The position numbers and the translations under genes were made by a program. From Candidatus Latescibacterota bacterium (GTDB taxonomy: Bacteria > Latescibacterota > UBA2968 > UBA8231), in contig OZ242214.1 of the NCBI GenBank assembly GCA_965206595.1, positions 4,480,001 to 4,544,000 on the forward strand: a stretch of 64,000 bases of DNA. Reading direction: 5' to 3'. The stretch's first letter is position 1. Each line of letters starts with the position of its first letter. The notes below the pieces were generated by a model that made no database searches, was not told the origin of the DNA, and saw only the letters and a program-made list of their open reading frames with translations. Shown piece by piece: positions 2,489 to 17,898 of the stretch.

Positions 2489-3370
2489 TCAGGACCCGGC
2501 GGGGCCCAAAAGCGTGTCGAGTGGGCTCTCGATACGCACCAGGTCCTTCCGCTGCACGTGGGTGTAGATCTCCGTCGTTTTCGAGCTCCTGTGTCCGAGG
2601 AGCTCCTGGATGTAGCGCAGATCGGTCCCCCCTTCGAGCAGGTGCGTCGCAAAGCTGTGTCTCAGGGTGTGCACGGTCACCCGCTTGCGAATTCCCGCGG
2701 CGGCGACCGCACGGGAGAACACCTTCTGCACCGACCGTTCGGTGAGATGCCGTCCTTCCCGGGCTCCGGGAAACAGCCACGTCGACGGCCGGTAAGCCTT
2801 CCAGTAGGACCGAAGATCCTCGAGAATCGCCCTGGGCAGCAGGGTGTAGCGATCCTTGCGCCCCTTGCCCTGCTGCACGCGGATCAACATGCGATCGCTG
2901 TCGATGTCGCTCACCTTGAGACGCACGACCTCCCCCACACGCAGCCCCCCGGCATACACCAGGGCCAGGATGACCCGGTGCTTGGGATTCCGAAGGGAAT
3001 CGAGCAGTCGCAGCATTTCCCGCTGGCTGAGGATTTCGGGAAGCTGGCGACCGCCACGCGGCCTGCGCAGACCCTCCAGGGAGGCGGGCTGCTTAAGGAC
3101 TTCCCCGTAGAGGAAGCTGAGAGCACTGTATAAAATGTTGAAGGCGGAGCGGCTCACCCCGCGGTCGAGGAACCATTCGAGGTGGGACCGCACCTCGTCA
3201 TGCCGTTCCCCCCGGTAGTCCCGTTTCCACTGAAGGAATCGCCGGCAGTAGCCCATGTACGACTTCTGCGTTTTCCTCGCGTACCCCCTCAGCTTCAGCT
3301 CGGACTCGACCCGGTTCAGGATGGCGACCTCTTCGTCGGTCAGGTCTGGATGTCTCCGATAGCGCCGCAT
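2489..3370 (-). CDS. Tyrosine recombinase, integron-integrase-like, with N-terminal SAM-like domain but without the IntI I2 insertion
   Basis: Catalytic R (GLRVGE), K (GKGRKDR), HxxR (HTLRHSFATH), H (LLGH) and Y (EIYTHV) are all present. N-terminal 'LRGYARKTQKSY'. Only 59 aa between KDR and HTLRH. Divergent from a cassette array. Confidence 0.9.
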   Translation of the reverse strand: MRRYRRHPDLTDEEVAILNRVESELKLRGYARKTQKSYMGYCRRFLQWKRDYRGERHDEVRSHLEWFLDRGVSRSAFNILYSALSFLYGEVLKQPASLEGLRRPRGGRQLPEILSQREMLRLLDSLRNPKHRVILALVYAGGLRVGEVVRLKVSDIDSDRMLIRVQQGKGRKDRYTLLPRAILEDLRSYWKAYRPSTWLFPGAREGRHLTERSVQKVFSRAVAAAGIRKRVTVHTLRHSFATHLLEGGTDLRYIQELLGHRSSKTTEIYTHVQRKDLVRIESPLDTLLGPAGS

Positions 3371-3505
3371 GGGCCCGGTTACTCCAAGGCAAAGGTTTGG
3401 CCCTGCCGTAGAGAAAGCCGTGCCAGTCCGACACGGAAACCGGAAATCGTCCTATCTGTCGCAACCGCAATGAGTCACGTCGGATATCCCGAATCGGGAA
3501 AATAG

Positions 3506-3534
3506 TTGCAACTGTTCATCCCGAAACGTACCAT
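3506..3534 (+). promoter_or_regulatory. Putative sigma70-type cassette promoter (Pc-like)
   Basis: TTGCAA (3506-3511), 17-bp spacer, TACCAT (3529-3534), pointing into the array about 60 bp before the first GTTA core. Confidence 0.6.
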
Positions 3535-3565
3535 CGTATCAGATAAGTAACACCCGGAGGCCATT

Positions 3566-3600
3566 ATCCGAACCATTTGTTCGGATTCAATCAGTTATGC
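3566..3600 (+). other. Putative attI-like primary recombination site
   Basis: Inverted repeat ATCCGAAC-CATTT-GTTCGGAT (3566-3586) followed by GTTATGC at 3594-3600, the exact complement of GCATAAC (4542-4548) that ends cassette 1. Confidence 0.65.
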
Positions 3601-3652
3601 GAATTTGCGCTCAGGGTTGACGTAAAGAAATCAAACGAAAGATAGCTACGCC

Positions 3653-4519
3653 TTGAAAGTGACGTTTCTCGGAACATCATCCGCTCCGTCGATGCCTATA
3701 CCGTTTTGCGTTTGTCAGGCGTGCTCAAACGCAAGGCGAGTTGGTGGAAAGAACCTTCGCAGGCGATCGTCCATCACAATCAACGACGAAGTGCTTGTGG
3801 ATATTGGCCCAGACATAGCGACCGCGTCATTCGATTACGACGTTTCGTTGACCGGAATCAGCGTCTGCCTATTGACTCATGCCCACGAGGACCACTTTGA
3901 TGCCGAGTTCATCATATCAAGACACGATGAATACGCAACTATCGTCGCACAGGACATGCTCCTTGCGGGTTCAATCGACGCGCTGAGGTCTATTGACACG
4001 ATTCTAGGCAGAAGGTGCTCGTACGGAAGCATCTTCGATCAAGAAACACAACGTGCCCTGAAGGTTAATCTGTTGACCGTCGAGCCATTCGAGACTCAAG
4101 TTGTCGGTGATTACCGTTTCACAGGATATCCCGCGAGTCACGGCACCGAGAAGGGATGCCTGCTTTACTCAATCGAGCAAGGTCAGCACGCTATATTTTA
4201 TGGTACTGATACATCGATTCTGTCGGAGAGAGTTTGGGAGCATCTTCTGCGCCAAGGCACGCAGTTCGACTTGCTCGTGCTCGATCACACGTACGGCATC
4301 GGTTTCGATGCTAGTCCGGCAGATCATCTGGCATCCGTTGATGTAATAGGCCACGTCGATCGCTTTCGGCGAAACGGTCTTCTTAAGGACAACGCGAAGG
4401 CATACGCGACTCACATTTCGCACGAAGGTTACATGGAGCATGACGAACTCGACGAGTATGCCGAAGCGCACGGTTACAGAGTCGCGTTTGACGGATTGGC
4501 GCTATCATTCAGTGTTTGA
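3653..4519 (+). CDS. MBL-fold metallohydrolase (PhnP-like), cassette 1
   Basis: 'KVTFLGTS..P.PFCVCQAC', HAHEDH metal motif, 'YGTDT', 'ATHISH'. Confidence 0.85.
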   Translation: MKVTFLGTSSAPSMPIPFCVCQACSNARRVGGKNLRRRSSITINDEVLVDIGPDIATASFDYDVSLTGISVCLLTHAHEDHFDAEFIISRHDEYATIVAQDMLLAGSIDALRSIDTILGRRCSYGSIFDQETQRALKVNLLTVEPFETQVVGDYRFTGYPASHGTEKGCLLYSIEQGQHAIFYGTDTSILSERVWEHLLRQGTQFDLLVLDHTYGIGFDASPADHLASVDVIGHVDRFRRNGLLKDNAKAYATHISHEGYMEHDELDEYAEAHGYRVAFDGLALSFSV

Positions 4520-4541
4520 ACAAGACACGAGCGCAAAACTC

Positions 4542-4632
4542 GCATAACAGCACGGTGTTGCGCGGCGGCGCATTCGCGCCTTGGCCTTCGGCAACCCACT
4601 TCGTGGGTTCGCAAACCGGCAGAACGTTAAGC
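4542..4632 (+). repeat. attC-like site 1
   Basis: GCATAAC-agca-CGGTGTTGCG ... CGCAAACCG-gcagaac-GTTAAGC; internal hairpins GGCGC/GCGCC, GCC-ttc-GGC and AACCCAC-ttc-GTGGGTT. Confidence 0.85.
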
Positions 4633-4972
4633 GAAGGCCAAGAGAATTTGATTGTTTTTGTGGAGTATAGATCATGATAGGGAGTGGGAGGGATCGGTAC
4701 TATCCGACCCAGGTCGGCGCTGTTTGAAGAGATGGGCAGCTCGTCGTTTGTGGATTTCCCCACCCCGTCCGGCGCGCTAATACCGCTTGGGCGTTGCGTT
4801 TTACCTGGTTCAGGAAAAAGACGAGATCAATGGGCAGTTGGAGATCAGGACCTGCGGATTGGGAGACCGACGAAAGATGGAGGGCTGAGCAAGGGCGCCG
4901 GACGGCCTCTCCACCGCCCAAGCCCGAGAGTTTTCTCCCATCGTGGTCGGGCAGAGCAGGCCCTCGCTTAAC
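4626..4972 (+). ncRNA. ORF-less cassette 2, candidate structured ncRNA
   Basis: Paralogous to 5044-5381 with no reading frame shared over the full length; 11-bp long-range helix 4765-4775/4895-4905 covaries between the copies. Confidence 0.5.
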
Positions 4973-5050
4973 ACCTGTGTCCCCGGCTCCGGGCCCTGGG
5001 GGCCCCTCGCGCAACCGCTTCGCGGTTCGGGGGCACGGAAGACGTTAAGC
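4966..5050 (+). repeat. attC-like site 2
   Basis: GCTTAAC-acc-TGTGTCCCCG ... GGGCCC-tgg-GGGCCC ... AACCGC-ttc-GCGGTT-CGGGGGCACG-gaagac-GTTAAGC. Confidence 0.85.
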
Positions 5051-5381
5051 GAAGGCAAACGAAGTTTTAAGGATTGTGTGGAGTATAGATCATGATAGGG
5101 TGTCGGAAAGGTCGGTGGTATCCATCGAATGTGGCGCAATTTGCGAGGTGGGCACCTCGTCGCGAGGGACTATCCCCACCCCGTCTGGCGCGCTGTTACC
5201 GACCGTGCGTTGCGTGCCGGTTACGAGATAAAAGCCCATCGGTCGAGATCTCGGAAGCTGGCTCACGATTTAGAGTTGGAATGGAGATGGCTCAGGGAGA
5301 AGGGCGCCAGACGGCCTCTCCACCTCCCAAGCCTGAGAGGTCTTTCTCTTCGTGGTCGATGTGTGCAGGCCCTCGCCTAAC
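5044..5381 (+). ncRNA. ORF-less cassette 3, candidate structured ncRNA
   Basis: Shares blocks GTGGAGTATAGATCATGATAGGG, TCCCCACCCCGTCYGGCGCGCT and AAGGGCGCCRGACGGCCTCTCCACC with cassette 2; helix 5181-5191/5304-5314. Confidence 0.5.
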
Positions 5382-5458
5382 ACCTGTTCCCCCGGCTCCG
5401 GGCCCTGCGGGCCCTTCGCGCAACCGCTTCGCGGTTCGTGGGCACCAAGACGATATAT
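5375..5458 (+). repeat. attC-like site 3 (right core altered to GATATAT)
   Basis: Near copy of site 2 (GCCTAACACCTGT...GGGCCC-tgc-GGGCCC...AACCGCTTCGCGGTT), ending AAGAC-GATATAT. Confidence 0.8.
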
Positions 5459-5550
5459 GACATGGGTTGTCACAGTACCAGTGAAATTCGACAGAGGCAA
5501 AGCTGGCACGGTTGAAATCATGAGCCTGCAGGCGCTGGAGAAAAACTGAC

Positions 5551-6042
5551 GTGGATCGCGTAGCCGTATTCGCAGATGTACAGAATGTTTACTACACAGT
5601 TAAGCAGCAACATAATTGCCATTTCGACTATGGTTCTTTCCTCAGGGAGGCGACAGCCGGCCGGAAACTGGTGAAGGCAGGAGCCTATGCTATTGACAAA
5701 GGCGACAGAAAGCAGGCCCAATTTCAGCAAATTCTGAAACGGCTCGGTTTTGAGGTAAAGCTCGCGCCTTATATTCAGAGAGCTGACGGCTCAGCCAAAG
5801 GGGACTGGGACGTGGGCATTACGGTCGATATGTTGGAGTACGCAGATCGCGTGGATGTCGCTGTCCTGGCTTCAGGTGACGGAGACTACGCGCCTGCAAT
5901 TGACAAGCTAATCAAGGAATCCAAGGTATCCGTCGAGGTGTACGGTGTCCCAGGACTAACTGCTAGTCGTCTAATCGAATCGTCGACGCGATTTGTGCCA
6001 ATTCAAGGAGATCTGTTGCTGCCTATTCCCACCACGTGGTGA
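5551..6042 (+). CDS. NYN domain (LabA/DUF88, PIN-like) protein, cassette 4
   Basis: 'VAVFADVQN', 'KGDWDVGITVD', 'LASGDGDY' acidic motifs. Confidence 0.88.
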   Translation: MDRVAVFADVQNVYYTVKQQHNCHFDYGSFLREATAGRKLVKAGAYAIDKGDRKQAQFQQILKRLGFEVKLAPYIQRADGSAKGDWDVGITVDMLEYADRVDVAVLASGDGDYAPAIDKLIKESKVSVEVYGVPGLTASRLIESSTRFVPIQGDLLLPIPTTW

Positions 6043-6130
6043 CGTGGAAGCGACACTGTTGCAAAGCCATGCACGCTAACGCACTCTCGCGTCGCTACCT
6101 CTCTGCGTTGATCAGCCTTGGAGCAATCAT

Positions 6131-6161
6131 ACCCACGTCATATATACGGAAGACGTTACCT
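6131..6161 (+). repeat. Collapsed attC-like junction between cassettes 4 and 5
   Basis: ACCCACGTCATATAT (complements the cassette 4 start) directly followed by ACGGAAGAC-GTTACCT; internal arms absent. Confidence 0.6.
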
Positions 6162-6190
6162 GCCATGGCAGTGCCCAGAAGGAGAGACAC

Positions 6191-7323
6191 ATGAAGGCCC
6201 TGACATCCATTATCGCCGCCTCAATCCTTCTCCTCTCGCCCATCCTCGCCCACGAACGAGAAGAACCCCCGGAGGGAGCCGTGGCCCGAACCGTCCTGCC
6301 AGACGCCAAGATGCCGATCATGAACGAGCACTCCCGTTCCACCCTTGTCTGCGCGATGTACGCCCTGCTGCCGGCTCTCGGGCAACAGGGCTGGTCGATC
6401 CCTCGACTGGAAGCGCTGACGGGATACGCCTTCTACTTTCAGATGCGGGAGGGCGGCGAGTCGGTCTTCGACGACGATCTCGATTGGGGCCTGGCCATGC
6501 ACGTCCTCGACATCTTTGGTCAAGCGAAAGTCTATGATGCGGACAAGAACTCGGACGTTGATCTCCCTGCGCTCAAGGCCGAAGCGCGAGACGCAGTCGT
6601 CGCCAGCCTGGAGAACGGACTTCCCAGCCTCGTCTGGGCGCCACTGAGCCTGGAGCAGAGGGGCAAGGTCCATTTCGCATGCTGGGGCCTCATCGTCGGC
6701 TACAACGCGGCAGACGAAACATACTTGATCCGCCAACCGGCCGAGAAGCTCGACTACCCGGTCCGCTTTGACGCCATCGGGTTCGCCGATCCGAGAGATT
6801 GGTTCCGCGTCGGCACCTTCAAGCCGAAAGAACTTGACGACAACGCTCTGCACCTCACCTCACTCCGCAATGCCGTCGCCTTCGCGAACGGCACTCGCTA
6901 CGACAACCCCCCAGGTCCGTCGAGGCCGCCCTCGTGCATCCCCCGAAAAACCCCTATGGATTCGCCGCCTACGAGCTCTGGCAGGAAGCGTTCGAATCTG
7001 ACGTAAATCTGAACGCCACGTTCTTCCACACAGAAACCCTGAAACCGCGTAGAGAGGCCGCGGCCGCCTACCTGCGGGAGCTCACCCATGTCTATCCGGC
7101 CGCCGCCAATCCGCTGGAAGCAGCAGCCGTTCACTATGATCGAGAGGTCGAATCCATCACCGCAATCTTCGACCTGTGCGTTGCCGCCACCAAGCACGAG
7201 CCCAAGGCCTTCACCCCCGACCAGCGCGCCGAAACCCGCTCCCTCATCGCCCAGCCGTTGAAGGCCGACCGGGCCGCCGTGGCGCAGATCGAGGCCGCGC
7301 TCAAGATTCTGGAGACGCCGTGA
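6191..7323 (+). CDS. Secreted hypothetical protein (possible BtrH/C39-peptidase-like fold), split by a frameshift near 6940; cassette 5
   Basis: Signal-peptide-like N-terminus; ORF 6191..7006 overlaps ORF 6934..7323; 'WGLIVGYN' motif; both parts lie in one cassette. Confidence 0.6.
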
Positions 7324-7407
7324 GGCAGGCTCAGCGTGCTCTTGACCGGGGCCCATCGTGAGGGGGGAGTACGCTGTTTCTTTGCCGATTCTCAAACTGC
7401 CACAGGC

Positions 7408-7490
7408 AGGTAACACGTCCGTGCCCGGCTTCGGGCTTACGCCCTTCGCGCAACCGCTTTCGCGGTTCGGGCACGGCGAAAACGTTATGT
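7408..7490 (+). repeat. attC-like site 5
   Basis: AGGTAAC-acgt-CCGTGCCCG ... GGGC-ttac-GCCC ... AACCGC-tttc-GCGGTT-CGGGCACGG-cgaaaac-GTTATGT (perfect 9-bp L arms). Confidence 0.88.
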
Positions 7491-7538
7491 GACATGGAAT
7501 AACTACCCCTAGATGAAATTTTCGCTCTACGAGCTATA

Positions 7539-8345
7539 ATGACAGAAGCAAAAGTTCTCTCACAAGATGACCTCGACCACTTCGAGACACATGGCTACAT
7601 CATTTTTCGCGGCGCATTTGATCCAGATGACTGCCGGCAGATGGAGGACATTGTCTGGCGTTGGTTGGAACGGCATGGTATCATGCGGAACGACCCCAGC
7701 ACCTGGGATCGGAATCAGGCAGGTGGGCTAAGCCGGACGGTTCGATCTACCCGTGTATTTCGCGATGCAGTATCAGAGCAGTTCGTATCGGCGATCGATC
7801 AGCTGTTGGGAACAGGTAGTTGGGAGAAACCCCGAGATTGGGGCAGTTTTGTGTTCTCGTTCCCCGAAGCCCTCGATGAACAGTGGAATGTCGCTAGCGG
7901 GAATTGGCACTGGCGCAACTCGGGTCTCCGCAACGTGGATAAGCTTGATGGGCTTTTCAATTTCTCGTTCATAACCGAGGTTCAATCTCACGGCGGTGGA
8001 ACGCACATAGCCGACGGGAGTCATCACCTGATAAGGCACTTCTACCGCACGCAAGAGAGCCTGTTTTCCCGGAACGACAGGATAGTCAAGAAGAGGTTCT
8101 TTAGTACTCATCCATGGCTCAGGGAACTGACGCAGGCAAGCGAGAATTCCATCACTCGCGTCAGACGGTTTAGGGATCAAACGACTGATGTTAATGGATT
8201 CCCCGTCCGCATCATTGAGTTGACCGGGAAGCCTGGTGACGCCATGATCGGCCATCCACTCCTGATGCACTGTCGGTCAACGAACTGTGCTGACGTGCCG
8301 AGGTTCATGAGGGCCTGTGAAATACACACGACCGCTGACAAATAG
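7539..8345 (+). CDS. PhyH family dioxygenase, cassette 6
   Basis: 'HFETHGYIIFRGAF', 'GGGTHIADGSHH', 'GKPGDAMIGHPLLMH'. Confidence 0.8.
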   Translation: MTEAKVLSQDDLDHFETHGYIIFRGAFDPDDCRQMEDIVWRWLERHGIMRNDPSTWDRNQAGGLSRTVRSTRVFRDAVSEQFVSAIDQLLGTGSWEKPRDWGSFVFSFPEALDEQWNVASGNWHWRNSGLRNVDKLDGLFNFSFITEVQSHGGGTHIADGSHHLIRHFYRTQESLFSRNDRIVKKRFFSTHPWLRELTQASENSITRVRRFRDQTTDVNGFPVRIIELTGKPGDAMIGHPLLMHCRSTNCADVPRFMRACEIHTTADK

Positions 8346-8377
8346 TTTGGAACCAATCTTCCATTCGGGACCACGTC

Positions 8378-8399
8378 ACATAACGAAGAACGTTTATAC
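8378..8399 (+). repeat. Collapsed attC-like junction between cassettes 6 and 7
   Basis: ACATAAC-gaagaac-GTTTATAC; both flanks match their cassettes' opposite ends but the internal arms are missing. Confidence 0.65.
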
Positions 8400-8454
8400 G
8401 AACTGAGAAAACCAATCATCGTGAATCCGAGGCGAATCAGACAAGGCTTTACGA

Positions 8455-9174
8455 ATGATCCTTGAAGCATTGAATGATCTTTTCACATCAGAATTGCTGG
8501 CTGCCCACCCTGAAGAATGGGGCGTGACCGATCATTGTGATCCGCCTTCCAGCGTAGGGTACGCGACCACGATTACTCCGAGGGCTATTTCGACGGCACT
8601 CGACCGTGGTGCCGACGTAATTGTCACGCATCATGACGCCTGGGATTTCATGTATGAACAAAGAGAGCAGGTATACGATCTCTTACGCGACAACAGCCTG
8701 ACCCATGTATGGGCCCACTTGCCGTTGGACCAGTCCGACTTTGGCACATCGGCTACGCTTCTCTCGAAAATTGGCTGCGTGGAGGTCTGCAAGCCATCGA
8801 AAGGTGAAGTACGCATTGGTGAACTGGATGAATCAACTGACTTCGAGGCGATCCGTTTGAAGCTCGATTCCCTATTGCAGGAACAACCACGTAGCCTCCA
8901 TGATTGGGGTCGAGCCATCCGCAGAATAGGCTGCGTGACTGGGGCGGGCGTCTACACGAGTTACCTCAAGGATGCGATGCCCCATGATATTGACCTTTAT
9001 CTGACAGGAGAGACTAACCTTTACTTATTGGAGTATGCCGTCCACCTTGGACTCAGCGCCCTGGTTTACTCCCACAACTATACCGAGTTGCCAGGAGTCC
9101 ATATGTTCGCAGAGCGTTTTTGCCAAGCTCTTCAACTCGAGATGAAGGGACACCTCGGTGACTCTCACTTCTGA
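8455..9174 (+). CDS. Nif3-like dinuclear metal-centre protein, cassette 7
   Basis: 'ADVIVTHH', 'AHLPLD', 'LYLTGE', 'HNYTE'. Confidence 0.85.
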   Translation: MILEALNDLFTSELLAAHPEEWGVTDHCDPPSSVGYATTITPRAISTALDRGADVIVTHHDAWDFMYEQREQVYDLLRDNSLTHVWAHLPLDQSDFGTSATLLSKIGCVEVCKPSKGEVRIGELDESTDFEAIRLKLDSLLQEQPRSLHDWGRAIRRIGCVTGAGVYTSYLKDAMPHDIDLYLTGETNLYLLEYAVHLGLSALVYSHNYTELPGVHMFAERFCQALQLEMKGHLGDSHF

Positions 9175-9195
9175 TTCGGTAAAGCGACTCAATTC

Positions 9196-9287
9196 GTATA
9201 ACACCGCGGCGTTGCGCTGCGTCGCTGTTGCTCCTTGGCCTCCGGCAATCTGGCAACGCCAGATTCACAAACCGTGAAACGTTATAT
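9196..9287 (+). repeat. attC-like site 7
   Basis: GTATAAC-accg-CGGCGTTGCG ... GCC-tcc-GGC-AATCTGGC-aac-GCCAGATT-CACAAACCG-tgaaac-GTTATAT; same layout as site 1. Confidence 0.82.
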
Positions 9288-9299
9288 GAAATATCTGAA

Positions 9300-10061
9300 A
9301 TGAGAAAAGAAGAATCAATTGACGGAGACTATCTGGCCCCAGCGAAATACGACAAATACTACGACGCGTAGGCTACGCTTCCAGAACGGTTTCTGGCTGA
9401 CCTCGCCTCTCGCGGAAGGGTCCTTGAACTGGAATTTGGAACTGGCCGGATAGCAATTCCCCTGGCGGAGAACGGCCTTGAGGTGACCGGGATCGATTAT
9501 TCCGAGCCGATGGTAAGCCTTGCCAGATCAAAGGCCGAAGACAGACAGGTGAGGGTCGACTGGATCCGCGACGATATACGCTGCTTTGACACCGGTAAGC
9601 GATATGGGTCGATCTTGCTACTGCACAACGCATTATGGCACCTGCACAACCTTTCCGATTTCGAAGAGTGCATTCGCTGTGTGAAGCGTCATCTCCTTCC
9701 GGGTGGTTTCTTCATTTTGGACGTCTTTGTCCCTGGGGTGGAGATCCTCAATCGCGACCCAGGCATTCGGTACCCATTCTCTCGCTACACGGACGATGAC
9801 ACGGGACAAGAAGTGCAGGTTACTCAGTCCTACAGGTATGAAGCAGACACCGAGATCGCGCGCATGGTGCACTACAGAAAGGACTCTGATGAGATCGTTG
9901 GGGGTCTGAATCTCCGGATGTATTTCCCGAAGGAACTGGATGCCTTGCTGAAGTACAACGGGATAAGGATCAAGGAGAAATTCGGGAGCTGGGACCGTGA
10001 CCCCTTTGGGCCGGACTCCAGGCATCAGCTTTGTTTCTGCACCACCATGGAGGACGGCTGA
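9300..10061 (+). CDS. Class I SAM-dependent methyltransferase, frameshifted in its 5' part; cassette 8
   Basis: ATG at 9300; upstream 'VLELE.GTGRIAIPLAE.GLEVTGIDYSEPM' joins ORF 9483..10061. Confidence 0.78.
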
Positions 10062-10334
10062 GCAGCCGGAATCGCATATCGGATATCACTCCAATTCACC
10101 CGGCGTCCGCCGCTCCCCTGAGGCTGTGCCCACCCCGCATGCGCGAGACCGGAATTGTGAGAAAGTCTGGGGACCTTAGGATGAATTGGTCGCGAGATAC
10201 AGGAGATGATACAGGCATGTCCAACCTGAAGGACGGGACCTTCGACAAGCGCGTCGATTACGACCCGGATAGCAATGTTCCTGTCCTGTCCCCGGCATAC
10301 GCAGTGGACTTCGAAGAATTTCGAGAGGTAGGTG

Positions 10335-10870
10335 ATGAAATCTGAATACGTGATGGCGTTGATTTTCGAATTCTGGGCCTTCTGTTGGGACTTCAAGCAG
10401 TAGCCTTCATCCCGGGCATAATGTTGGCGACTTCAGAGCCGTTTTTCGGGGGTTCGCCAACATGGCCGCTCGTGATGCCTCAAGTGCTCGTATGGGTGCT
10501 GTGTCTGCCAGTAGCTTTCGTGTTGTTTCGCTACGAACGATGGCTTGCCAACCTCGTTGTGGCTGAAGACGAGCATCTGGAACTGGCGGGAGTGGCCGTA
10601 GAGACCGCCGATACCCTACCGGTTTTTCGTTTGCTCTTGCGCGTTGTTGGCGCATTCGTTGTTGCCTGGTCGGTGCCCGAGTTGGCCGGTCATGGTTTCG
10701 CCCACGTGATGCTGTACCAGATGAGCGGCCCGCAAATCTGGACTCAGATCGCCCCGGGCGTTGTGAAGCTGGCTATAGGCGTATATCTGCTCAAAGGTGG
10801 GACACACCTTGTACGCTTCGCGTACGGCTCCCAGCCCATATCCGATTACCCAGGAAATGACGAAACCTGA
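10335..10870 (+). CDS. Hypothetical multi-pass membrane protein (5' frameshift)
   Basis: ATG 10335 after GAGGT RBS, shifting into ORF 10385..10870 with about 4 hydrophobic segments. Confidence 0.6.
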
Positions 10871-11005
10871 TTACATGCCAGTCTGGAAAGGCATAAGAAA
10901 GTCGTTTCCGTGAGGAGGTCATTTGTCGTGTAACAGCGCCATTCCGGATGGAGCTTTCACCTTCGCCAGAATGCTTCTTAAGTTCGGGAAACCGGCCGAC
11001 TTGCT

Positions 11006-11362
11006 GTGAGAAGTGCAAGATCAGATCGATCAGAATCGAGGACTCCCGATGAATGGCAGGACAGGTACGTATTTGACACCCAAGGTTACGTGGTGCTTCC
11101 CGACATCCTCACTCATTCCGAGGTTGAGCGCCTCGTCGACGCCTTCCCGAGGGATGACAAAGGCCAGGTCATGCTCGAAGCTCCTGACGACAACTCACAT
11201 CATGACAACAGCATCCAGGGAAGGGTGCTCGATCATCGAGCTCTGATTGAGGCCAGCGTCACCGGCTACCTGGGACGCAGCTGCATGAAGCATCCTGCCG
11301 CCTGGGACATCGGTTCCGTCGGTAGCCTGGGGCCCATCAGGATCGCCCTGATAGGGCACTGA
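11006..11362 (+). pseudogene. PhyH-family N-terminal fragment
   Basis: 'DRYVFDTQGYVVLPDIL' matches the PhyH N-termini in this window; the rest is missing. Confidence 0.5.
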
Positions 11363-11432
11363 TTCTCACCGAATCCGACCGGTATGTCCTCAAGGCAGTA
11401 GGCGATTTGATTGGAAAAAGGGGGCCCTCGAT

Positions 11433-12176
11433 ATGCCAGGTTTCATGTCATGGAAGGAAATGAACTGGCTTCTGCCTGACTTTAATGAGACCGGGTTGAT
11501 CTACCACGGAAGTCAGCCTGAAAATCTGGCTTCTATCTTCCAGAATGGCCTGATTCCCCAATACAATAGTCCCAGAGATGGGCACGAAACAATCTACAAT
11601 GCACACTACCGGTACCGGCCCAAGTCCATTCCAGACTGGGTGGATCCGAGACGATGTATTTTTGGTTACATGAACCGGGCCAGGCAAGGAGGCTGGGGCG
11701 GCATTGTGGATGGAATAGTCAATGGTGTAACCATTGGCATTAAAGCAGCAGATCATATCACTGAGCGGACCTGGACAGCCTGCGTCCGGTTTTCAGATAT
11801 GGTGGACTGCCCGGAGGAGGCAGGGTACTTCGATACGGAGGAGAGAAAAGCCTTTTTCAAGGACAGAATGGAACCGGTTTCGTGTAAAGCATACTGGGAG
11901 ACCAGCCTCTCATTTCACGATAACTTGAAGATTCGCCTGGATCATTTGCTCCCGATGCAGGGAAATCATGAGCTATTGATTTGTTCGGAGATTGATCCTG
12001 GGTTACTAAATCTTCGAGGGTTCAGAGTGCGGGGGGCAAATGGAACACGCGAGGTTGTCAGCAATGACCTGTCCGAGGTGTTTCTGAATGCCGAAGAAAA
12101 GCTTCGGAACAACATGCCAATTGTGGGGGAACTGAAGGCCGTCAGCGAATTCTGCGGCCGTTCGGCCAGCGCCTGA
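11433..12176 (+). CDS. Hypothetical protein with ADP-ribosyltransferase-like N-terminal motif
   Basis: 247-aa ORF with 'IYHGS..ENLASIFQNGLIP'. Confidence 0.6.
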   Translation: MPGFMSWKEMNWLLPDFNETGLIYHGSQPENLASIFQNGLIPQYNSPRDGHETIYNAHYRYRPKSIPDWVDPRRCIFGYMNRARQGGWGGIVDGIVNGVTIGIKAADHITERTWTACVRFSDMVDCPEEAGYFDTEERKAFFKDRMEPVSCKAYWETSLSFHDNLKIRLDHLLPMQGNHELLICSEIDPGLLNLRGFRVRGANGTREVVSNDLSEVFLNAEEKLRNNMPIVGELKAVSEFCGRSASA

Positions 12177-12365
12177 CAACAACGGTTTCCCTTTGAACTG
12201 CGGCGGTATTTGCACGGCCGGGCTCAAAGGTGCGTAACAACCCGGGGAGACCAGAGCCTGGTGACCGCACCCTGAAAGAATGCGGGCAGCTGTGGCGGCC
12301 ATGAAAAACGCAGGTGGGTATTGGCTTGGAGCTGAACCCAACAACGCCAACGAGGAGTCCCGAGA

Positions 12366-12707
12366 ATGAAAGAGATTGCGCCCACACTTCCGGTATCCGA
12401 TGTCCAGAAAGCTGTCGAGTTCTATCGGGGCAAGTTGGCGTTCAGTGTCGGTTTCCAGAATCATCCCGTCTTTGCTTTGGTTCGGCGCGGCGCTGTCAGT
12501 ATCGGTTTGCAGCTTGCTTCGCAGCGACGGCCAGCCGGGACAGGAAGTTGCTACATCTGGGTGGATGATGTCAGGGAAATTTATAATGAGTTGTCCGGAA
12601 GAGGAGTTGAATTCGCAGATGACATCGCGTTTCGCGATGAATATGAAATGACCGACTTCGTCCTCCATGATCCGGATGGGAACCACATCGGGATTGGCGG
12701 AAACTGA
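12366..12707 (+). CDS. VOC/glyoxalase (bleomycin-resistance-like) family protein
   Basis: 'PTLPVSDVQKAVEFY', 'YIWVDDV', 'DPDGNHI'. Confidence 0.88.
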   Translation: MKEIAPTLPVSDVQKAVEFYRGKLAFSVGFQNHPVFALVRRGAVSIGLQLASQRRPAGTGSCYIWVDDVREIYNELSGRGVEFADDIAFRDEYEMTDFVLHDPDGNHIGIGGN

Positions 12708-12807
12708 GGGGGTCATGAATGCGAATCTGGCAGGTTCCATCGCCCTGACTCCACCTCTAAGGCCAATGGGGGTAAAAAGCGGACGTTCTTAGTGGAAGCT
12801 CGATTCC

Positions 12808-13593
12808 ATGGAACTGACCAGAGATGACATTGAAGCGGGCTTTCGTAATCTCGGCCTGAAGGAAGGCGAAACAGTTGAAGTTCATAGCTCATTGAGCAGC
12901 TTGCGCAATGTGCAAGGGGGAGCTGAAACTGTCGTGGATGCCTTGATGAGTGTCGTGGGCGAAAGTGGAGCGTTGGTGATGTCCAACTATCCGCTCACCC
13001 CCCCGATCCCCTTGACTTCCGAGGAGAAATCCAAAGGAATAGGTTGGAAACTCAGAATTCTGACCGAGGACTCAGACGAAAGGACGGTGACCGGCGCCAT
13101 TTCCGACGAGTTTCGCTTCAGAGCTGATGTTGTATGCGGTTCTGGGACCCGTCGTGTCTGTGCCTGGGGCCGGGATGCGGATTTGCACGCCAAGGGATAT
13201 CGACACTTGCTCGAAGTCGATGGGCTGGTTCTTCTCCTTGGTGTAGACATAGATCGATGTTCAAGCATGCATCTCGCCGACGGAGTGAAGGTTACCAAGG
13301 AGGCCAGGGAGCGGATGAATGCAATATGGCCTGATCCAGGGTGCAAAATCACGGACGAAGTCAGGCGGGAATATCCTTCAGATATAATCATTGGCCCCAG
13401 GGAAGGGACATCTGGAAATCCTTGGGAAAATGCCAGACAGGAAGCTGAAAGACGAGGATTGATAAGGAGAGGTAAGGTCGGTCAAGCAGACTGCTTGCTA
13501 TTCAGGGCGAGGGATCTAGTCGGTCTGATTGAGAAAGTTCGTAAATCTGGGCCTTTCAAAGACGCATTGCAGAACATTTTTGACGAGGAATAA
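12808..13593 (+). CDS. AAC(3) family N-acetyltransferase
   Basis: 'LGLKEGETVEVHSSLSSL..VQGGAETVVDAL', 'VLLLGV...SSMHLAD'. Confidence 0.85.
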   Translation: MELTRDDIEAGFRNLGLKEGETVEVHSSLSSLRNVQGGAETVVDALMSVVGESGALVMSNYPLTPPIPLTSEEKSKGIGWKLRILTEDSDERTVTGAISDEFRFRADVVCGSGTRRVCAWGRDADLHAKGYRHLLEVDGLVLLLGVDIDRCSSMHLADGVKVTKEARERMNAIWPDPGCKITDEVRREYPSDIIIGPREGTSGNPWENARQEAERRGLIRRGKVGQADCLLFRARDLVGLIEKVRKSGPFKDALQNIFDEE

Positions 13594-13666
13594 GGATGGC
13601 GCTGATAGCTCAGCGCGGAGAAAGCAGGGCAAAGGTCCAAGACGAACCGCGGCGGACCTGGCCGGA

Positions 13667-15034
13667 ATGACTATGCAATACTTCCAACCTGGCGGCGACT
13701 TCTTCGTCGGCGACTGCATGCCCTTTTACCACGATGGTGTCTTCCGGCTCTTCTACCTTCTGGACGAGGGCCACCACGGAGCACTCGGCGGGTTGGGAGG
13801 CCATCAGTGGGCACAGGCAAGCACGACGGACCTCCTTCACTGGGAACACCATCCGCTCGCCATCCCGATCACCGAGGAGCGTGAAGGTTCCATCTGCACC
13901 GGTTCGGTGTTCTTCCACGAAGGGACATACTACGGTTTCTACGCGACGCGCATGCGCGACAGGACGCAGCATCTGAGTCTTGCGACCAGTCACGAGGGCG
14001 TCCACTTCCAGAAGACCGAACCCAATCCGTTCGCTTCGCCGCCTCCTGGCTACGACCCGGTCCATTACCGTGACCCGTTCGTCTTCCAGGATCGCGGTGA
14101 AGGACTCTTCCACATGCTCGTTACGGCGTGCCTGGAAGACTGGCCCATCGGCGACCGCGGCGGGTGCCTTGCCCACCTGGTTTCCGCAGACTTGAAACAC
14201 TGGGAGAACAGAAAGCCGTTTATCGTGCCGGGTCTGCCGGGGGCGCCCGAATGTCCGGATTATTTCTTCTGGAATGGCTGGTACTATCTCGTATTCAGCA
14301 ACCGCGGGGTCGCCCGCTACAGAATGTCGCGAGAGCCCTTCGGACCCTGGCTTCGGCCGCAGGTCGACGCCCTTGACGGAGCTGCTGCACGGGTAATGAA
14401 GACTGCGCCATTCGGGGACGGCAGGCGCCTTGGTGTTGCCTGGATCGGCACACGCGAGAACAACCGGGACGATGGACCGTTTCAGTGGGGGGGCAACGCC
14501 GTATTCCGAGAACTGATCCAACATGACGACGGCACTCTTGGTGCGAAGTTTCCGGAGGAACTGACCCCTGGCGGTGACCCGCTGTCCGCTCTGCACCTGT
14601 CCGCGCTCGATGCCGATACGAGAGTTGAGGGACGCAGTGTCCACGCAGCAGCTCGGCAAGGCCTGGCAGCGGCCGGCTGTTCCGGCATTCCACGCAATGC
14701 GCGACTGGCAATCCGTGTCCTTCCTCAGCCAGGCTCCCTGGGTTTCGGGCTTCGCCTCCGGGCTGGTGAGACATTCGACTCAGGATGCGACCTGGACTTC
14801 TCACCCTATGACCGGGTCGCCAGGCTGCACGATCAGTGGATATATGGTGTCGATGGACTGGATCGCCCCTTCTCCCTGGAGATAGTTCTCAGGGACGACA
14901 TCATTGACGTTTGCATCGACGGCCGCAGGACGCTTATCGATCGATGTCCGGAAAGGCGGGGCGACCGGATGCTGCTGTATGCGCAGGATTCGGGGGTCAC
15001 GTTTGAGGTTGCCGAGATCGCTGCTCTGCCGTAG
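13667..15034 (+). CDS. Glycoside hydrolase, GH32-like five-bladed beta-propeller
   Basis: 'VGDCMPFY', 'TGSV', 'YRDP', 'PECPDY' catalytic motifs plus a C-terminal beta-sandwich. Confidence 0.82.
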   Translation: MTMQYFQPGGDFFVGDCMPFYHDGVFRLFYLLDEGHHGALGGLGGHQWAQASTTDLLHWEHHPLAIPITEEREGSICTGSVFFHEGTYYGFYATRMRDRTQHLSLATSHEGVHFQKTEPNPFASPPPGYDPVHYRDPFVFQDRGEGLFHMLVTACLEDWPIGDRGGCLAHLVSADLKHWENRKPFIVPGLPGAPECPDYFFWNGWYYLVFSNRGVARYRMSREPFGPWLRPQVDALDGAAARVMKTAPFGDGRRLGVAWIGTRENNRDDGPFQWGGNAVFRELIQHDDGTLGAKFPEELTPGGDPLSALHLSALDADTRVEGRSVHAAARQGLAAAGCSGIPRNARLAIRVLPQPGSLGFGLRLRAGETFDSGCDLDFSPYDRVARLHDQWIYGVDGLDRPFSLEIVLRDDIIDVCIDGRRTLIDRCPERRGDRMLLYAQDSGVTFEVAEIAALP

Positions 15035-15149
15035 CGCAGAGAGAATTGCGGGCCACACCACCCGCCACCAATCCCCAACACCCGGGGAACAGAAGCTGGG
15101 GTTCACAAACAGACAGCCCGTTAGGCGCCAGTCGAGGAAACTCCCGAAC

Positions 15150-15764
15150 GTGAAACGGACGGCCACCAAAATCCCACTCAGGGTGCAGACAACGCGGTTG
15201 GAAACCTTCAACCGCGAACGTCACGCCTGGCCGGTCTCCCTGCGCCGGAAGTGCTCGGCGGATTCGGGGCGAACCTGGGTCTTCACGGATGGTGGCGGTG
15301 ATGGGCGGTTCGGGGCTGTCGTTGTGCGTCCGGGAATCGAAGAACACCGGATGGCGGGACGCCGCGGATCACGGACCAACAGCGTGGTTGCCGAACTCGA
15401 TGGGGTCGTGTTGGGTCTGGAGAATTGCCGACTGGGTGAGAGAATCACGATCGTGTCCGACTATCTGTGGACAGCATACTATATCAACGGCTGGCGCCGC
15501 GTACACCATCCTCGGCTTCGTGAAGGAGTTGTACATGCGAGGAGGCGTCTGGAAAAGCTGCGGGGCGCCGTGTTCGTGCATTACGCGCTGGAAACCGGGG
15601 GCGAATGTGCCTTCAGACGATGGAACGCTGTCGCTCATGACCTGTGTCAAAAGGACATGGTCGGGACCAACTCGCGTACTCCTTGGGACCAGACCAAAGC
15701 GTTGGACATTGTTTCGGAATATCCCCTGAATAGACGGGGACATACCGCATTGTCCCCGGTATAG
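15150..15764 (+). CDS. RNase HI-like protein
   Basis: 'VFTDG', 'TNSVVAEL', 'IVSDY', 'WNAVAH'; start uncertain (GTG 15150 with GAGGA RBS). Confidence 0.65.
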   Translation: MKRTATKIPLRVQTTRLETFNRERHAWPVSLRRKCSADSGRTWVFTDGGGDGRFGAVVVRPGIEEHRMAGRRGSRTNSVVAELDGVVLGLENCRLGERITIVSDYLWTAYYINGWRRVHHPRLREGVVHARRRLEKLRGAVFVHYALETGGECAFRRWNAVAHDLCQKDMVGTNSRTPWDQTKALDIVSEYPLNRRGHTALSPV

Positions 15765-15797
15765 GCAGACACGTCACCTAAAAAGGAAACGCGCAAA

Positions 15798-16565
15798 ATG
15801 GGACACTGCTGGACGCTTGCCCTTGAACAGCAAACGGACCTGACCTCATCCCACGGCTCGGTTTCCGAGTTGGCGGCAGCAGTACGCCGAGGCGCGGATC
15901 TCCGGCTTTACATGACCACGGATCGGTACGAGGAAACCCTCTACTTCCAGCAGACTTATGCCGGTGAGAATGGCGCGTTCGCAGGGCTGATGAGCCACCA
16001 CCACAGCTACGTGCACCGCGGCCAGGACATAGAGCAACCATACATCAGCATCTTCAAATACGACGACTCCGGGAGCTTCTCCCACGTGAAGTGGATGTCG
16101 GGTGATGTGCGCATGGATGAGAGCCAGGCCTATTCGTACGGGATATATCGGTGGTTTATCTGCGACCGCTGGCGAACCGTCTACGAGCACGATGCCGATG
16201 GCAGTCCCGTGCGCGGAAATCTGGAGGAACTGAAAGAGCATGTCCGGCTGGGGCACTCGGTTCAGGTAGGAGTCCGCCAACTGTTCGGTTTGGCCGAGGA
16301 TACCACTGCCGGGCCATCGCACATCTCGTTTGTCACCACGATGCAGCCGCTCATCCGGGATGCCCATGTGCAGTCCAACTGCGACCTCGTTGCGATAGGC
16401 GCCCCGAAATGGCCGTGCACCTGGCGCGACGGCCTCCATGTGGCAGTGATGCTCCCCTCCACGTCCGGTGAGATTCTTTGCTTCCTTGCCGAACCGGGGA
16501 ATCTCCCGTTTAGACGGGTCATGCGCCGGCGCCCCATGCAGTGGATGGTGGCGGAGATGGAGTGA
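15798..16565 (+). CDS. Hypothetical protein with an internal two-fold repeat
   Basis: AAGGA RBS; 'WTLALE...GSVSELAAAVRRGADLRL' resembles 'WRTVYE...GNLEELKEHVRLGHSVQV'. Confidence 0.7.
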   Translation: MGHCWTLALEQQTDLTSSHGSVSELAAAVRRGADLRLYMTTDRYEETLYFQQTYAGENGAFAGLMSHHHSYVHRGQDIEQPYISIFKYDDSGSFSHVKWMSGDVRMDESQAYSYGIYRWFICDRWRTVYEHDADGSPVRGNLEELKEHVRLGHSVQVGVRQLFGLAEDTTAGPSHISFVTTMQPLIRDAHVQSNCDLVAIGAPKWPCTWRDGLHVAVMLPSTSGEILCFLAEPGNLPFRRVMRRRPMQWMVAEME

Positions 16566-16645
16566 ACGCGCGAACCGTTGAATGAACCGCCAAACCCGGA
16601 ATGGGGAACAGGAAAGCGTTGCCGCCGGGAAACCAACCGAGGAAT

Positions 16646-17094
16646 ATGCCAGGAAAACCGATCCAGGTGCTTGTGATTCCATTCCGCATGGGATCTGAGC
16701 CGGAGTTTGCGGTTTTTCACCGTTCCGACGAGGAGATGTGGCAATTCATTGCCGGCGGCGTTGAGGACCGGGAAGACGCAATGCGGGCCGCCCGGCGGGA
16801 GGCGGAAGAAGAGGCGTCCATCCCGAGTGATTTGCCGTTTGTGCGGCTGGATTCGGTTGCTTCCGTTCCCAGGACAGCATTTGAAGAGACGGAGCACTGG
16901 CCGGAAAATCTGCTCTTGTACCCGAGTATTCGTTCGCTGTCGATGTCGGCGACCGAGAGCTGGTGCTATCCTTCGAACACGACGAGGTGAGGTGGGTGCC
17001 TTACGACAAAGCCCGGTGCCTCCATACATGGAACAGCAATCGGGTGGCGCTCTGGGAGCTCAATGAAATGAAAGCCTGCCGCAGACAACAGTGA
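16646..17094 (+). CDS. NUDIX pyrophosphatase, frameshifted near 16915
   Basis: NUDIX box 'GGVEDREDAMRAARREAEEEA'; C-terminus 'PEYSFAVD...EHDEVRW...SNRVALWEL' in a shifted frame. Confidence 0.75.
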
Positions 17095-17239
17095 GGTCTT
17101 CCAGAACTTTTCTGTAGTCTTCCGGGTTCGTAATTCCACAAATAAATCGCTATTCGCCTTGACGCTGATCAGGAGGTCCGAGGGCAGTTTCATTGTTTGG
17201 GGATAATTGGTCCAAACCTTGAGACAGGGAGAAAAGGAA

Positions 17240-17640
17240 TTGTTCGCAAAACTCTTCGTCGTATGCCTCATTGTTGTCGGTTCATGTTTCGGAGTCCAGG
17301 CTGAGCGTCCGGCGGGAATGGTGCTCTATTTCAAGTCCGGAGACGAGGTATTCCTGCTTCTCGCGGATCACCGGGAAAAGGACAGAGGTTGGGCCGGTTA
17401 CGGAGGCGGTCCGGATGAGGGGGAGAGCCAGGCTGAAACGGCGGCGAGAGAAGCGGAGGAAGAGACGAGAGGCTACTTTCTGCGGGATGATCTGCTCGAC
17501 ATGATCAAGGGACAGGAGTCAGTGATAGACAATGGCTTTGCCTTGTACTTCGCGGAAGTCCCCTTTGTTCCCGCACAACTTGTGACCAACAATCCACTTC
17601 CCAGCGACGATGAATCCTACGTTGAAAGAGGTCCGTATGA
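17240..17640 (+). pseudogene. Signal-peptide-bearing NUDIX hydrolase, 3' truncated
   Basis: 'GGGPDEGESQAETAAREAEEETRG'; sequence stops looking like protein after about 17640. Confidence 0.6.
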
Positions 17641-17898
17641 GGGAACGATCGGAGGCGCCTGTAAAGCGTCTTCTCGACCCACTCGCCATCCAGCAAAAGG
17701 GCATACCTGTCCGGAAAACTCAAGTTTTCCTCGCCGGAAAAAAATTGGCCCCTGCATTACGCGCAGGCGCGAAGACCTGACTTTGGATGTGTTGCGTAAC
17801 GAAGGGGCCGTTCTTTTATGCTTGTTCATAACGGCATATCCGGTAGTGCGGTTCGTCAAGCAACTATCTCCAATGCGATATAAACGTTTCCTATTCCC

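Follow-up and report, generated by a model that had tools for sequence, protein, structure and literature searches.

The 64,000-nt stretch analysed here, which we call the window, spans positions 4480001-4544000 of the single contig (C1) that makes up the 7.05 Mb genome G000, of a Candidatus Latescibacterota bacterium. Near its left end, a gene for a 293-aa tyrosine recombinase heads an array of gene cassettes carrying attC recombination sites. The gene-cassette array is real and is an integron of known kind. We further propose, with a confidence of roughly three in four, that it is a chromosomal integron whose integrase would be the adjacent IntI-like recombinase, a protein of a lineage that never carries I2, the additional segment of canonical integron integrases (IntI). 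From comparative genomics, we infer that this protein would catalyze cassette recombination and that its substrate would be single-stranded. A first, sequence-only reading of the window had suggested a cassette platform of this sort with an I2-less recombinase. The suggestion is supported by attC arrays beside all eight close-homologue loci that could be inspected, by the lack of canonical IntI in the nine genomes with a close homologue, and by the position of the protein outside the IntI clade.

The recombinase open reading frame (ORF) lies at the left edge of a low-GC island that covers about 3.4-17.9 kb of the window (52-60% GC versus ~68% around it), and 224 nt separate the gene from the first cassette. 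The head of the array consists of the following features:

2489-3370, minus strand: tyrosine recombinase, IntI/XerA-like, 293 aa, with intact catalytic motifs and without the IntI-specific I2
3371-3597, no strand assigned: attI region, aligning across 7 genomes as far as the crossover between G3594 and T3595

An IntI-like recombinase without I2

The recombinase is intact, as had been read from the sequence. It matches the Pfam domains PF00589 (2.4e-41) and SAM-like N-terminal PF13495 (1.2e-11), and keeps the catalytic motifs GLRV (142), GKGRKDR (168), HTLRH (234), GH (259), and IYTH (268). Its best NCBIfam family is the integron integrase TIGR02249, where it scores 223.6 bits, under the cut-off of 265; this supports the concern that IntI models could miss such a system. 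The TIGR02249 match is split in two (profile positions 1-179 and 235-315), leaving positions 180-234, the I2 segment, unmatched.

Pairwise and multiple alignments also showed the I2 insertion to be absent. Relative to VchIntIA (PDB 2a3v), residues 21-187 of the window protein correspond to chain residues 9-178 and residues 206-285 to chain residues 239-318, and the ~60 VchIntIA residues in between (179-238) correspond to 18 in the window protein, about 42 fewer. Alignment with 15 canonical IntI (14 of the same phylum plus IntI1) opened gaps of 31 and 10 aa where the IntI carry a conserved ALxRKYPxA...W.WQ segment. The short 59-aa stretch originally noticed between the KDR and HxLRH motifs proved to be a family trait, with identical spacing in 72 of the 74 homologues having both motifs (126 proteins scanned).

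An AlphaFold model of the recombinase had a mean predicted local distance difference test (pLDDT) score of 85.9, and a PDB fold search with this model returned VchIntIA as the best predicted match (E 1.4e-15), followed by archaeal XerA. VchIntIA is the closest PDB match by sequence as well as by modeled fold. The window protein also resembles archaeal XerA and the NCBIfam family NF040815 ('site-specific tyrosine recombinase/integron integrase') in its length, domain architecture, and absence of I2, scoring 212.1 bits to NF040815 (cut-off 220). The XerC and XerD models gave 175 bits versus cut-offs of 330 and 335. Unlike XerA, the window gene is accessory and tied to attC arrays rather than to dif (dif was not searched for). 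Its distribution is not that of a housekeeping gene, with a match at E ≤ 1e-40 in 16 of 61 related genomes, and G000 has separate Xer-like genes.

Judged by its sequence, the window recombinase is not a member of IntI as currently defined, given that it lacks I2, scores below the family cut-off, and falls outside the IntI clade. In this it differs from canonical IntI. The protein is 33-41% identical to the canonical IntI of its phylum and 50-56% identical to a family of I2-less proteins. In trees rooted on Xer, IntI and the I2-less proteins formed one group (support 100), IntI was monophyletic (100), and the window clade was excluded from it (100); these were quick maximum likelihood trees with Shimodaira-Hasegawa-like approximate likelihood ratio test (SH-aLRT) support only. 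Given this greater identity to the I2-less proteins and the place of the window clade outside IntI, the absence of I2 is not a recent deletion. The quick trees did not resolve the branching order of the I2-less lineages, and so we do not place the origin of IntI inside the family.

Folded attC sites and the attI region

Cassettes were delimited with covariance models of attC. The first model (R1) was built from five obvious sites and the second (R2) was rebuilt from 80 sites belonging to the window, its relatives, and four loci of other phyla; R2 is trained mainly on one lineage. These models were used instead of a heuristic motif-and-fold scan, which was dropped after giving mostly false hits inside genes. 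With filters off, R2 identified five strong attC in the window (E 1e-10 to 1e-18), at 4538-4636, 4962-5054, 5371-5462, 7404-7494, and 9192-9291, with the minus strand as bottom strand for all. Adding two internally deleted sites and one degenerate site gives eight cassettes up to ~10.18 kb, in agreement with the at least eight co-oriented cassettes counted at first sight:

3595-4626, plus strand: cassette 1, starting TTATGC; ORF 3653-4519 for a metallo-beta-lactamase-fold hydrolase (PF12706)
4542-4632, minus strand (bottom strand): attC 1, with R'' GCATAAC at 4542-4548 and R' GTTAAGC at 4626-4632
4627-5044, plus strand: cassette 2, no convincing ORF; attC 2 at 4966-5050
5045-5452, plus strand: cassette 3, a paralogue of cassette 2; attC 3 at 5375-5458, with R' = GATATAT
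5453-6155, plus strand: cassette 4; ORF 5551-6042 for an NYN-domain protein; attC at ~6132-6161 without its middle
6156-7484, plus strand: cassette 5, starting TTACCT; ORFs 6191-7006 and 6934-7323 with no Pfam match; attC 5 at 7408-7490, beginning AGGTAAC
7485-8392, plus strand: cassette 6; ORF 7539-8345, PhyH-like; attC at 8371-8399, internally deleted
8393-9281, plus strand: cassette 7; ORF 8455-9174, NIF3/DUF34; attC 7 at 9196-9287
9282-10185, plus strand: cassette 8; S-adenosylmethionine (SAM) methyltransferase; degenerate attC at ~10077-10185, read by eye and missed by the model

Across the 80 attC, which come from related arrays and are not independent, 86.5% of hairpin cells were paired compared to 68.9% in shuffles. 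Compensatory changes occurred on both sides in 27 of 31 pairs, and the covariation score was 0.412 versus at most 0.062 when partners were slid. The fold was more stable on the bottom strand than on the top strand for 64 of the 80 sites. On the bottom strand, the consensus retains TAAC followed by an invariant G, and the hairpin has a branched tip. A G.T pair is conserved at the R box (75 of 80 sites), and the R'-L' arm has a one-sided 4-nt TTYY bulge, usually with one extra base on the R''-L'' side. Counts of extrahelical bases by minimum free energy are noisy, with a paired R box in only 56 of the 80 folds. Unlike the attC described in PMC2727003, in which two spacer regions without complementarity form an unpaired central spacer and the extrahelical bases number two or three, window-type sites have mostly a one-sided 4-nt bulge as spacer and usually a single extrahelical base.

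The ends of individual cassettes also matched one another. In the arrays as a whole, the R'' of a site is complementary to the first bases of its own cassette, with on average 5.06 of 8 variable positions matching (n = 53). For the two ends of one site the average was 3.38 (n = 69), and for random pairs it was 3.46. The match was 7 of 7 in four of the window cassettes:

Cassette 1: GTTATGC at 3594 with GCATAAC at 4542
Cassette 2: GTTAAGC at 4626 with GCTTAAC at 4966
Cassette 5: GTTACCT at 6155 with AGGTAAC at 7408, an exact complement
Cassette 6: GTTATGT at 7484 with ACATAAC ending at 8384

GTTACCT at 6155 had been singled out by the sequence-only reading as a break with the GTTRRRY rule. The site is real, and its complement closes the same cassette at 7408. 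Departing from GTTRRRY is not in itself unusual. More generally, the attC of the window are not exotic: the R/L-box hairpin, AAC/GTT conservation, and a G following AAC are all present, as in ordinary attC. In these features and the branched tip they resemble the sites of chromosomal integrons, as do the miscellaneous cassettes and their turnover between strains. The divergent integrase, attI, co-oriented array, and G^TT crossover (the caret marks the exchange point) are likewise those of sedentary chromosomal integrons such as the Vibrio cholerae superintegron.

The two short sites, at ~6132-6161 and 8371-8399, are attC reduced to R'' and the last 8-10 nt. Relatives G001 and G002 carry full attC for cassettes 4 and 6, and because the same cassettes have complete sites there, the short sites are deletion derivatives. 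Both share one form, in which R'' abuts the final 8-10 nt ahead of G^TT and inverted arms surround a 7-nt spacer, and may have arisen by slippage between short repeats or by aberrant recombination at a second AAC/GTT. At both ends of cassette 4, the R box reads GAT/ATC and not GTT/AAC, a compensated change.

The intergenic region aligned across seven genomes up to ...CAG^TTA (3594-3597) and sequences beyond this point were unrelated, confirming the attI-like core that had been placed at 3594. Variant joints at attI, seen in the comparison with G001 and in metagenome contigs, fall at 3590-3603. The region contains GTTGCAAC-TGTTCA (about 3505-3518) and a palindrome, CCGAAC (3568-3573) and GTTCGG (3579-3584) with N5 between. 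The Pc-like cassette promoter claimed earlier was not recovered by a consensus sigma-70-like scan, which covered one promoter type and gave no plus-strand site in 3371-3594.

The form of these sites bears on how the recombinase would act. One alternative is that the enzyme is an integrase but works on double-stranded or cruciform sites through Xer-like two-strand exchange, not through the single-strand pathway resolved by replication. The Xer/XerA architecture of the protein, the attI palindrome, and the inverted arms and 7-nt spacer of the two short sites would fit such a scheme, and Escudero et al. link the acquisition of I2 to recombination of single strands (PMC7790495, PMC4792948). We nonetheless regard it as unlikely, since the sites covary without being conserved in sequence, which points to a folded form, the strand asymmetry of the sites (G.T pair, stabler bottom strand, one-sided bulge) speaks against it, and the short sites are derivatives of full attC.

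In the single-strand pathway that we prefer, the I2-less enzyme would bind the conserved attI and also the folded bottom strand of attC, with its R box (TAAC.G/T.GTTA), 4-nt bulge, L stem usually bearing one extrahelical base, and branched tip. It would cut at G^TT and exchange strands. New cassettes would enter at attI and old ones would be excised between attC, as in classical integrons.

Several cassettes showed features of their own. Cassettes 2 and 3 (4627-5452) have 86% mean column identity, with highly conserved blocks between indels that are not multiples of three, and offer no convincing ORF. They may be structured RNAs or ORF-less cassettes; an Rfam scan of 3300-18500 gave no match at E ≤ 0.1, leaving both without an Rfam name. 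The two ORFs of cassette 5 (6191-7006 and 6934-7323) overlap in different frames and may be one frameshifted gene. The methyltransferase of cassette 8 (9228-10061) is a single frame apart from one in-frame TAG at 9369-9371, and contigs of run X6 show G>T at 9371, within this TAG.

Cassette turnover and the link between recombinase and arrays

Comparison with close relatives revealed changes in cassette content at the expected sites. Genome G001 (same genus, 97% nucleotide identity) has the recombinase gene and attI in common with the window up to 3598, at 96.7% identity. Its attI is then directly joined to window cassette 4 (5452-6145, 99.3% identity), with cassettes 1-3 absent, different cassettes occupy the place of window cassettes 5 and 6, and 8385-17637 is common to both. 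The breakpoints (3598, 5452, 6145, and 8385) are exactly at attI and attC. The comparison does not polarise the direction of change. Very close strains thus differ in cassettes 1-3 at attI, the outcome that an integrase active at this site produces.

Window cassettes were also found in other arrangements. Cassettes 5 and 6 sit at separate places of the array in G002, and the cassette 4 gene is also present in the array of G020. Metagenome contigs from four public runs of four studies have other cassette orders at attI: attI is joined to cassette 3 in contigs of runs X4 and X5 (255 letters on the shorter side) and to cassette 4 in contigs of runs X6 and X9 (29 and 24 letters). Cassette 4 additionally assembles as a stand-alone contig, 5452-6145. 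The complementarity of cognate ends, together with the occurrence of the same cassettes in other contexts (G001, G002, G020, and contigs of the four runs), indicates that the cassettes are individually mobile.

The recombinase itself is associated with such arrays. Close homologues (74-97% identity) were present in 9 of 61 related genomes, from two families of one class, and in metagenomes (P0001-P0015); a search of public genomes for related loci returned only distant family members and no close clade. Every close-homologue locus with flanking sequence (8 of 8) had an attC array beside it in the orientation of the window, at densities of 4-19 attC per 20 kb (E ≤ 1e-3), so the prediction that homologues would consistently neighbor attC arrays held. 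These eight loci, with at least 79% identity or fragments of such genes, come from seven related genomes, and the homologue in G013 is at a contig end. Canonical IntI (TIGR02249 above cut-off) was absent from all nine genomes that carry a close homologue. The search was able to find canonical IntI, since 17 of 168 genomes of the phylum exceeded the cut-off, including 10 of 75 in the same family.

Could the array instead be one of the clusters of attC sites lacking integron-integrases (CALINs), built in trans by a canonical IntI of a plasmid since lost or of an earlier host, with the adjacent recombinase performing Xer-like resolution or mobile-element integration? CALINs are common, canonical IntI exists in 10 of the 75 same-family genomes, and G000 contains orphan clusters of the same attC type far from the recombinase (C1 2573-4266, 110115-110695, 3352436-3363601, and 5957185-5957275); the genome-wide search that found them scored 150 of 7916 candidates, so that more clusters may exist. 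The IntegronFinder definition (PF00589 plus intI_Cterm) would probably file the window array as a CALIN, and recombinases near attC without the domain have been classed in the literature as something other than IntI (PMC4889954).

Unlike a CALIN, the array is headed by attI and a conserved, selected, IntI-related recombinase in every related genome. Gene and array adjoin each other at all eight loci, always in the same orientation and with attI conserved alongside, which speaks against construction in trans, as does the absence of canonical IntI from the nine genomes of the clade. In the wider family described below, all 52 of 52 attC fall on one strand relative to the gene and mostly downstream. 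R2 detected essentially nothing, and no arrays, at four canonical-IntI loci of the phylum (G098, G010, G023, and G038; L157-L164), a null that may reflect either narrowness of the model, which scores class-1 attC weakly (15 and 14.5 bits), or a real difference. Integrase type and attC type may co-vary. A housekeeping Xer role sits poorly with the accessory distribution of the gene and the separate Xer-like genes of G000. We therefore consider a CALIN built in trans quite improbable.

Several points weigh against our interpretation of the recombinase as the integrase of this array. The support for recombination is wholly comparative. The related genomes are kin, and counts of synteny among them are not independent events. 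Copies of the gene in the clade are broken (a frameshift after residue 226 in G001, an internal deletion in G002, a TAA in G004, and a truncation in G012), and arrays therefore persist without an intact gene. Part of the window array is a fossil, with only 5 of about 8 boundaries being intact attC, and R2 with filters off detected none beyond 9291 in 9.3-18 kb. On the literature side, Cury et al. 2016 concluded that recombinases near attC without the IntI-specific domain are not IntI (PMC4889954), and deletion work has been cited as evidence that IntI needs the additional domain for its activity (Messier and Roy 2001, cited in PMC9668308).

Some of these same observations could suggest a decayed, inactive IntI that lost I2 by deletion and left the array as a frozen relic, for which one can cite the pseudogene copies, the three degenerate boundaries among eight, the lack of detected attC in 9.3-17.6 kb, and the in-frame stop of one cassette gene. 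This appears very improbable to us. The gene is under purifying selection, with dN/dS of 0.07-0.12 (six pairs from four genomes with intact copies), and the 59-aa spacing is fixed across phyla. A relic of this kind is also at odds with the position of the protein, which lies outside the IntI clade and resembles the I2-less family more than it does any canonical IntI. Cassette content at attI has, moreover, changed since G000 and G001 diverged.

Cassette-like genes run on past the delimited cassettes to ~17.6 kb of the window, and the stretch at 15767-16560 recurs inside the attC-rich region of G012 at 90.6% identity. The rest of the island can be summarised as:

10186-17637, plus strand: remainder of the low-GC island, mostly co-oriented small genes; G001 has the same stretch at 97% and then 90% identity

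The wider I2-less family

A homology search with the recombinase returned 7957 proteins at E ≤ 1e-20. Many members of this wider family are 350-385 aa long and have an N-terminal extension that the window protein is without. All five scanned relatives from other phyla passed the NF040815 cut-off. The extension gave weak matches to HARP (PF07443) in 7 of 77 members, below the Pfam threshold; the extension, for example residues 41-73 of L043:4827-5945, has the motif ..GRKW....K.W.iP. HARP domains bind forked DNA, and the extension of the long members might stand in for I2.

We examined 85 loci of the family from many phyla with R2. All 52 of the 52 attC matches (E ≤ 0.1), from the 22 loci with a match, were on the strand opposite the gene, and 50 of the 51 tabulated matches were downstream of the gene with 1 upstream. 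Downstream attC were present in 21 of 43 loci having at least 1 kb of downstream sequence, compared to upstream attC in 1 of 67. When identity was at least 49% and the downstream sequence at least 2 kb long, 11 of 14 loci had a downstream site; upstream sites were counted in 1 of 64 loci in the same tabulation. Matches beside I2-less genes of distant phyla reached E 1e-6 to 1e-12, and textbook attC with cognate-end complementarity occurred in Desulfitobacterium sp. Sab5 and a Candidatus Altarchaeum metagenome-assembled genome.

Loci with this inverted layout (L037, L060, L057, L043, L079, L066, and others) belong to Bacillota, Atribacteria, Thermodesulfobacteria, Spirochaetota, and DPANN/Altiarchaeota, and canonical IntI was found in 0 of the 5 such genomes searched. 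The layout is like that of inverted-orientation integrons known from Spirochaetes and others (PMC4889954, PMC9668308). It differs from them in that the published inverted integrases carry the IntI-specific domain. The window clade is in turn unlike inverted-orientation integrons in having the classical divergent layout and no N-terminal extension.

Both kinds of gene can be found in one genome. G098 has a canonical IntI gene (1441-2457 of L131, C1:2492064-2496008) directly followed by an I2-less family gene (2828-3682), and a second such pair at ~2.158 Mb (L147) in which the IntI is truncated. G012 has both types of I2-less gene: a window-type gene with a divergent array (L028) and a 50%-identical gene (L035/L165, C1 ~888-892 kb) whose two to three attC lie downstream, as in the other inverted loci.

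Cury et al. 2016 reported 21 recombinases near attC without intI_Cterm in genomes without IntI; four of them fell between IntI and Xer, none with three or more attC (PMC4889954). The IntegronFinder 2 study describes Firmicutes as nearly without integrons (PMC9024848), and an archaeal survey lists mostly CALINs and six IntI (PMC9668308). We found no published report of I2-less integrases heading attC arrays, and the 21 recombinases of Cury et al. 2016 may include relatives. The closest experimental parallel is with engineered I2 variants of IntI1 (Escudero et al. 2016, 2020), which pose the same question of an integrase without I2 or with an altered one. Unlike those variants, the window lineage is natural, selected, and tied to large arrays.

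A broader proposal, which we advance tentatively and hold to be somewhat doubtful, is that the window represents a large overlooked class of integrons. Its integrases would be I2-less IntI/XerA-like proteins with the fixed 59-aa spacing, distributed across Bacteria, including Bacillota, and Archaea, and the class would explain many orphan CALINs. Canonical IntI would then be a derived branch of the same stock, with attC recombination predating I2 and not requiring it, and inverted members may engage folded DNA via their weakly HARP-like extension.

I2 is the textbook signature of integron integrases, on which IntegronFinder and TIGR02249 rely, and has been proposed as the origin of single-strand cassette recombination (PMC4889954, PMC9024848, PMC4792948, PMC7790495). 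Given a natural, selected I2-less lineage heading large, recently remodelled arrays in genomes free of canonical IntI, integrons would be defined too narrowly in current practice. Some of the unexplained surplus of CALINs, and the seeming absence of integrons from certain phyla, may be a detection artefact. The natural enzyme and its own sites also allow a direct test of whether recombination of folded attC depends on I2.

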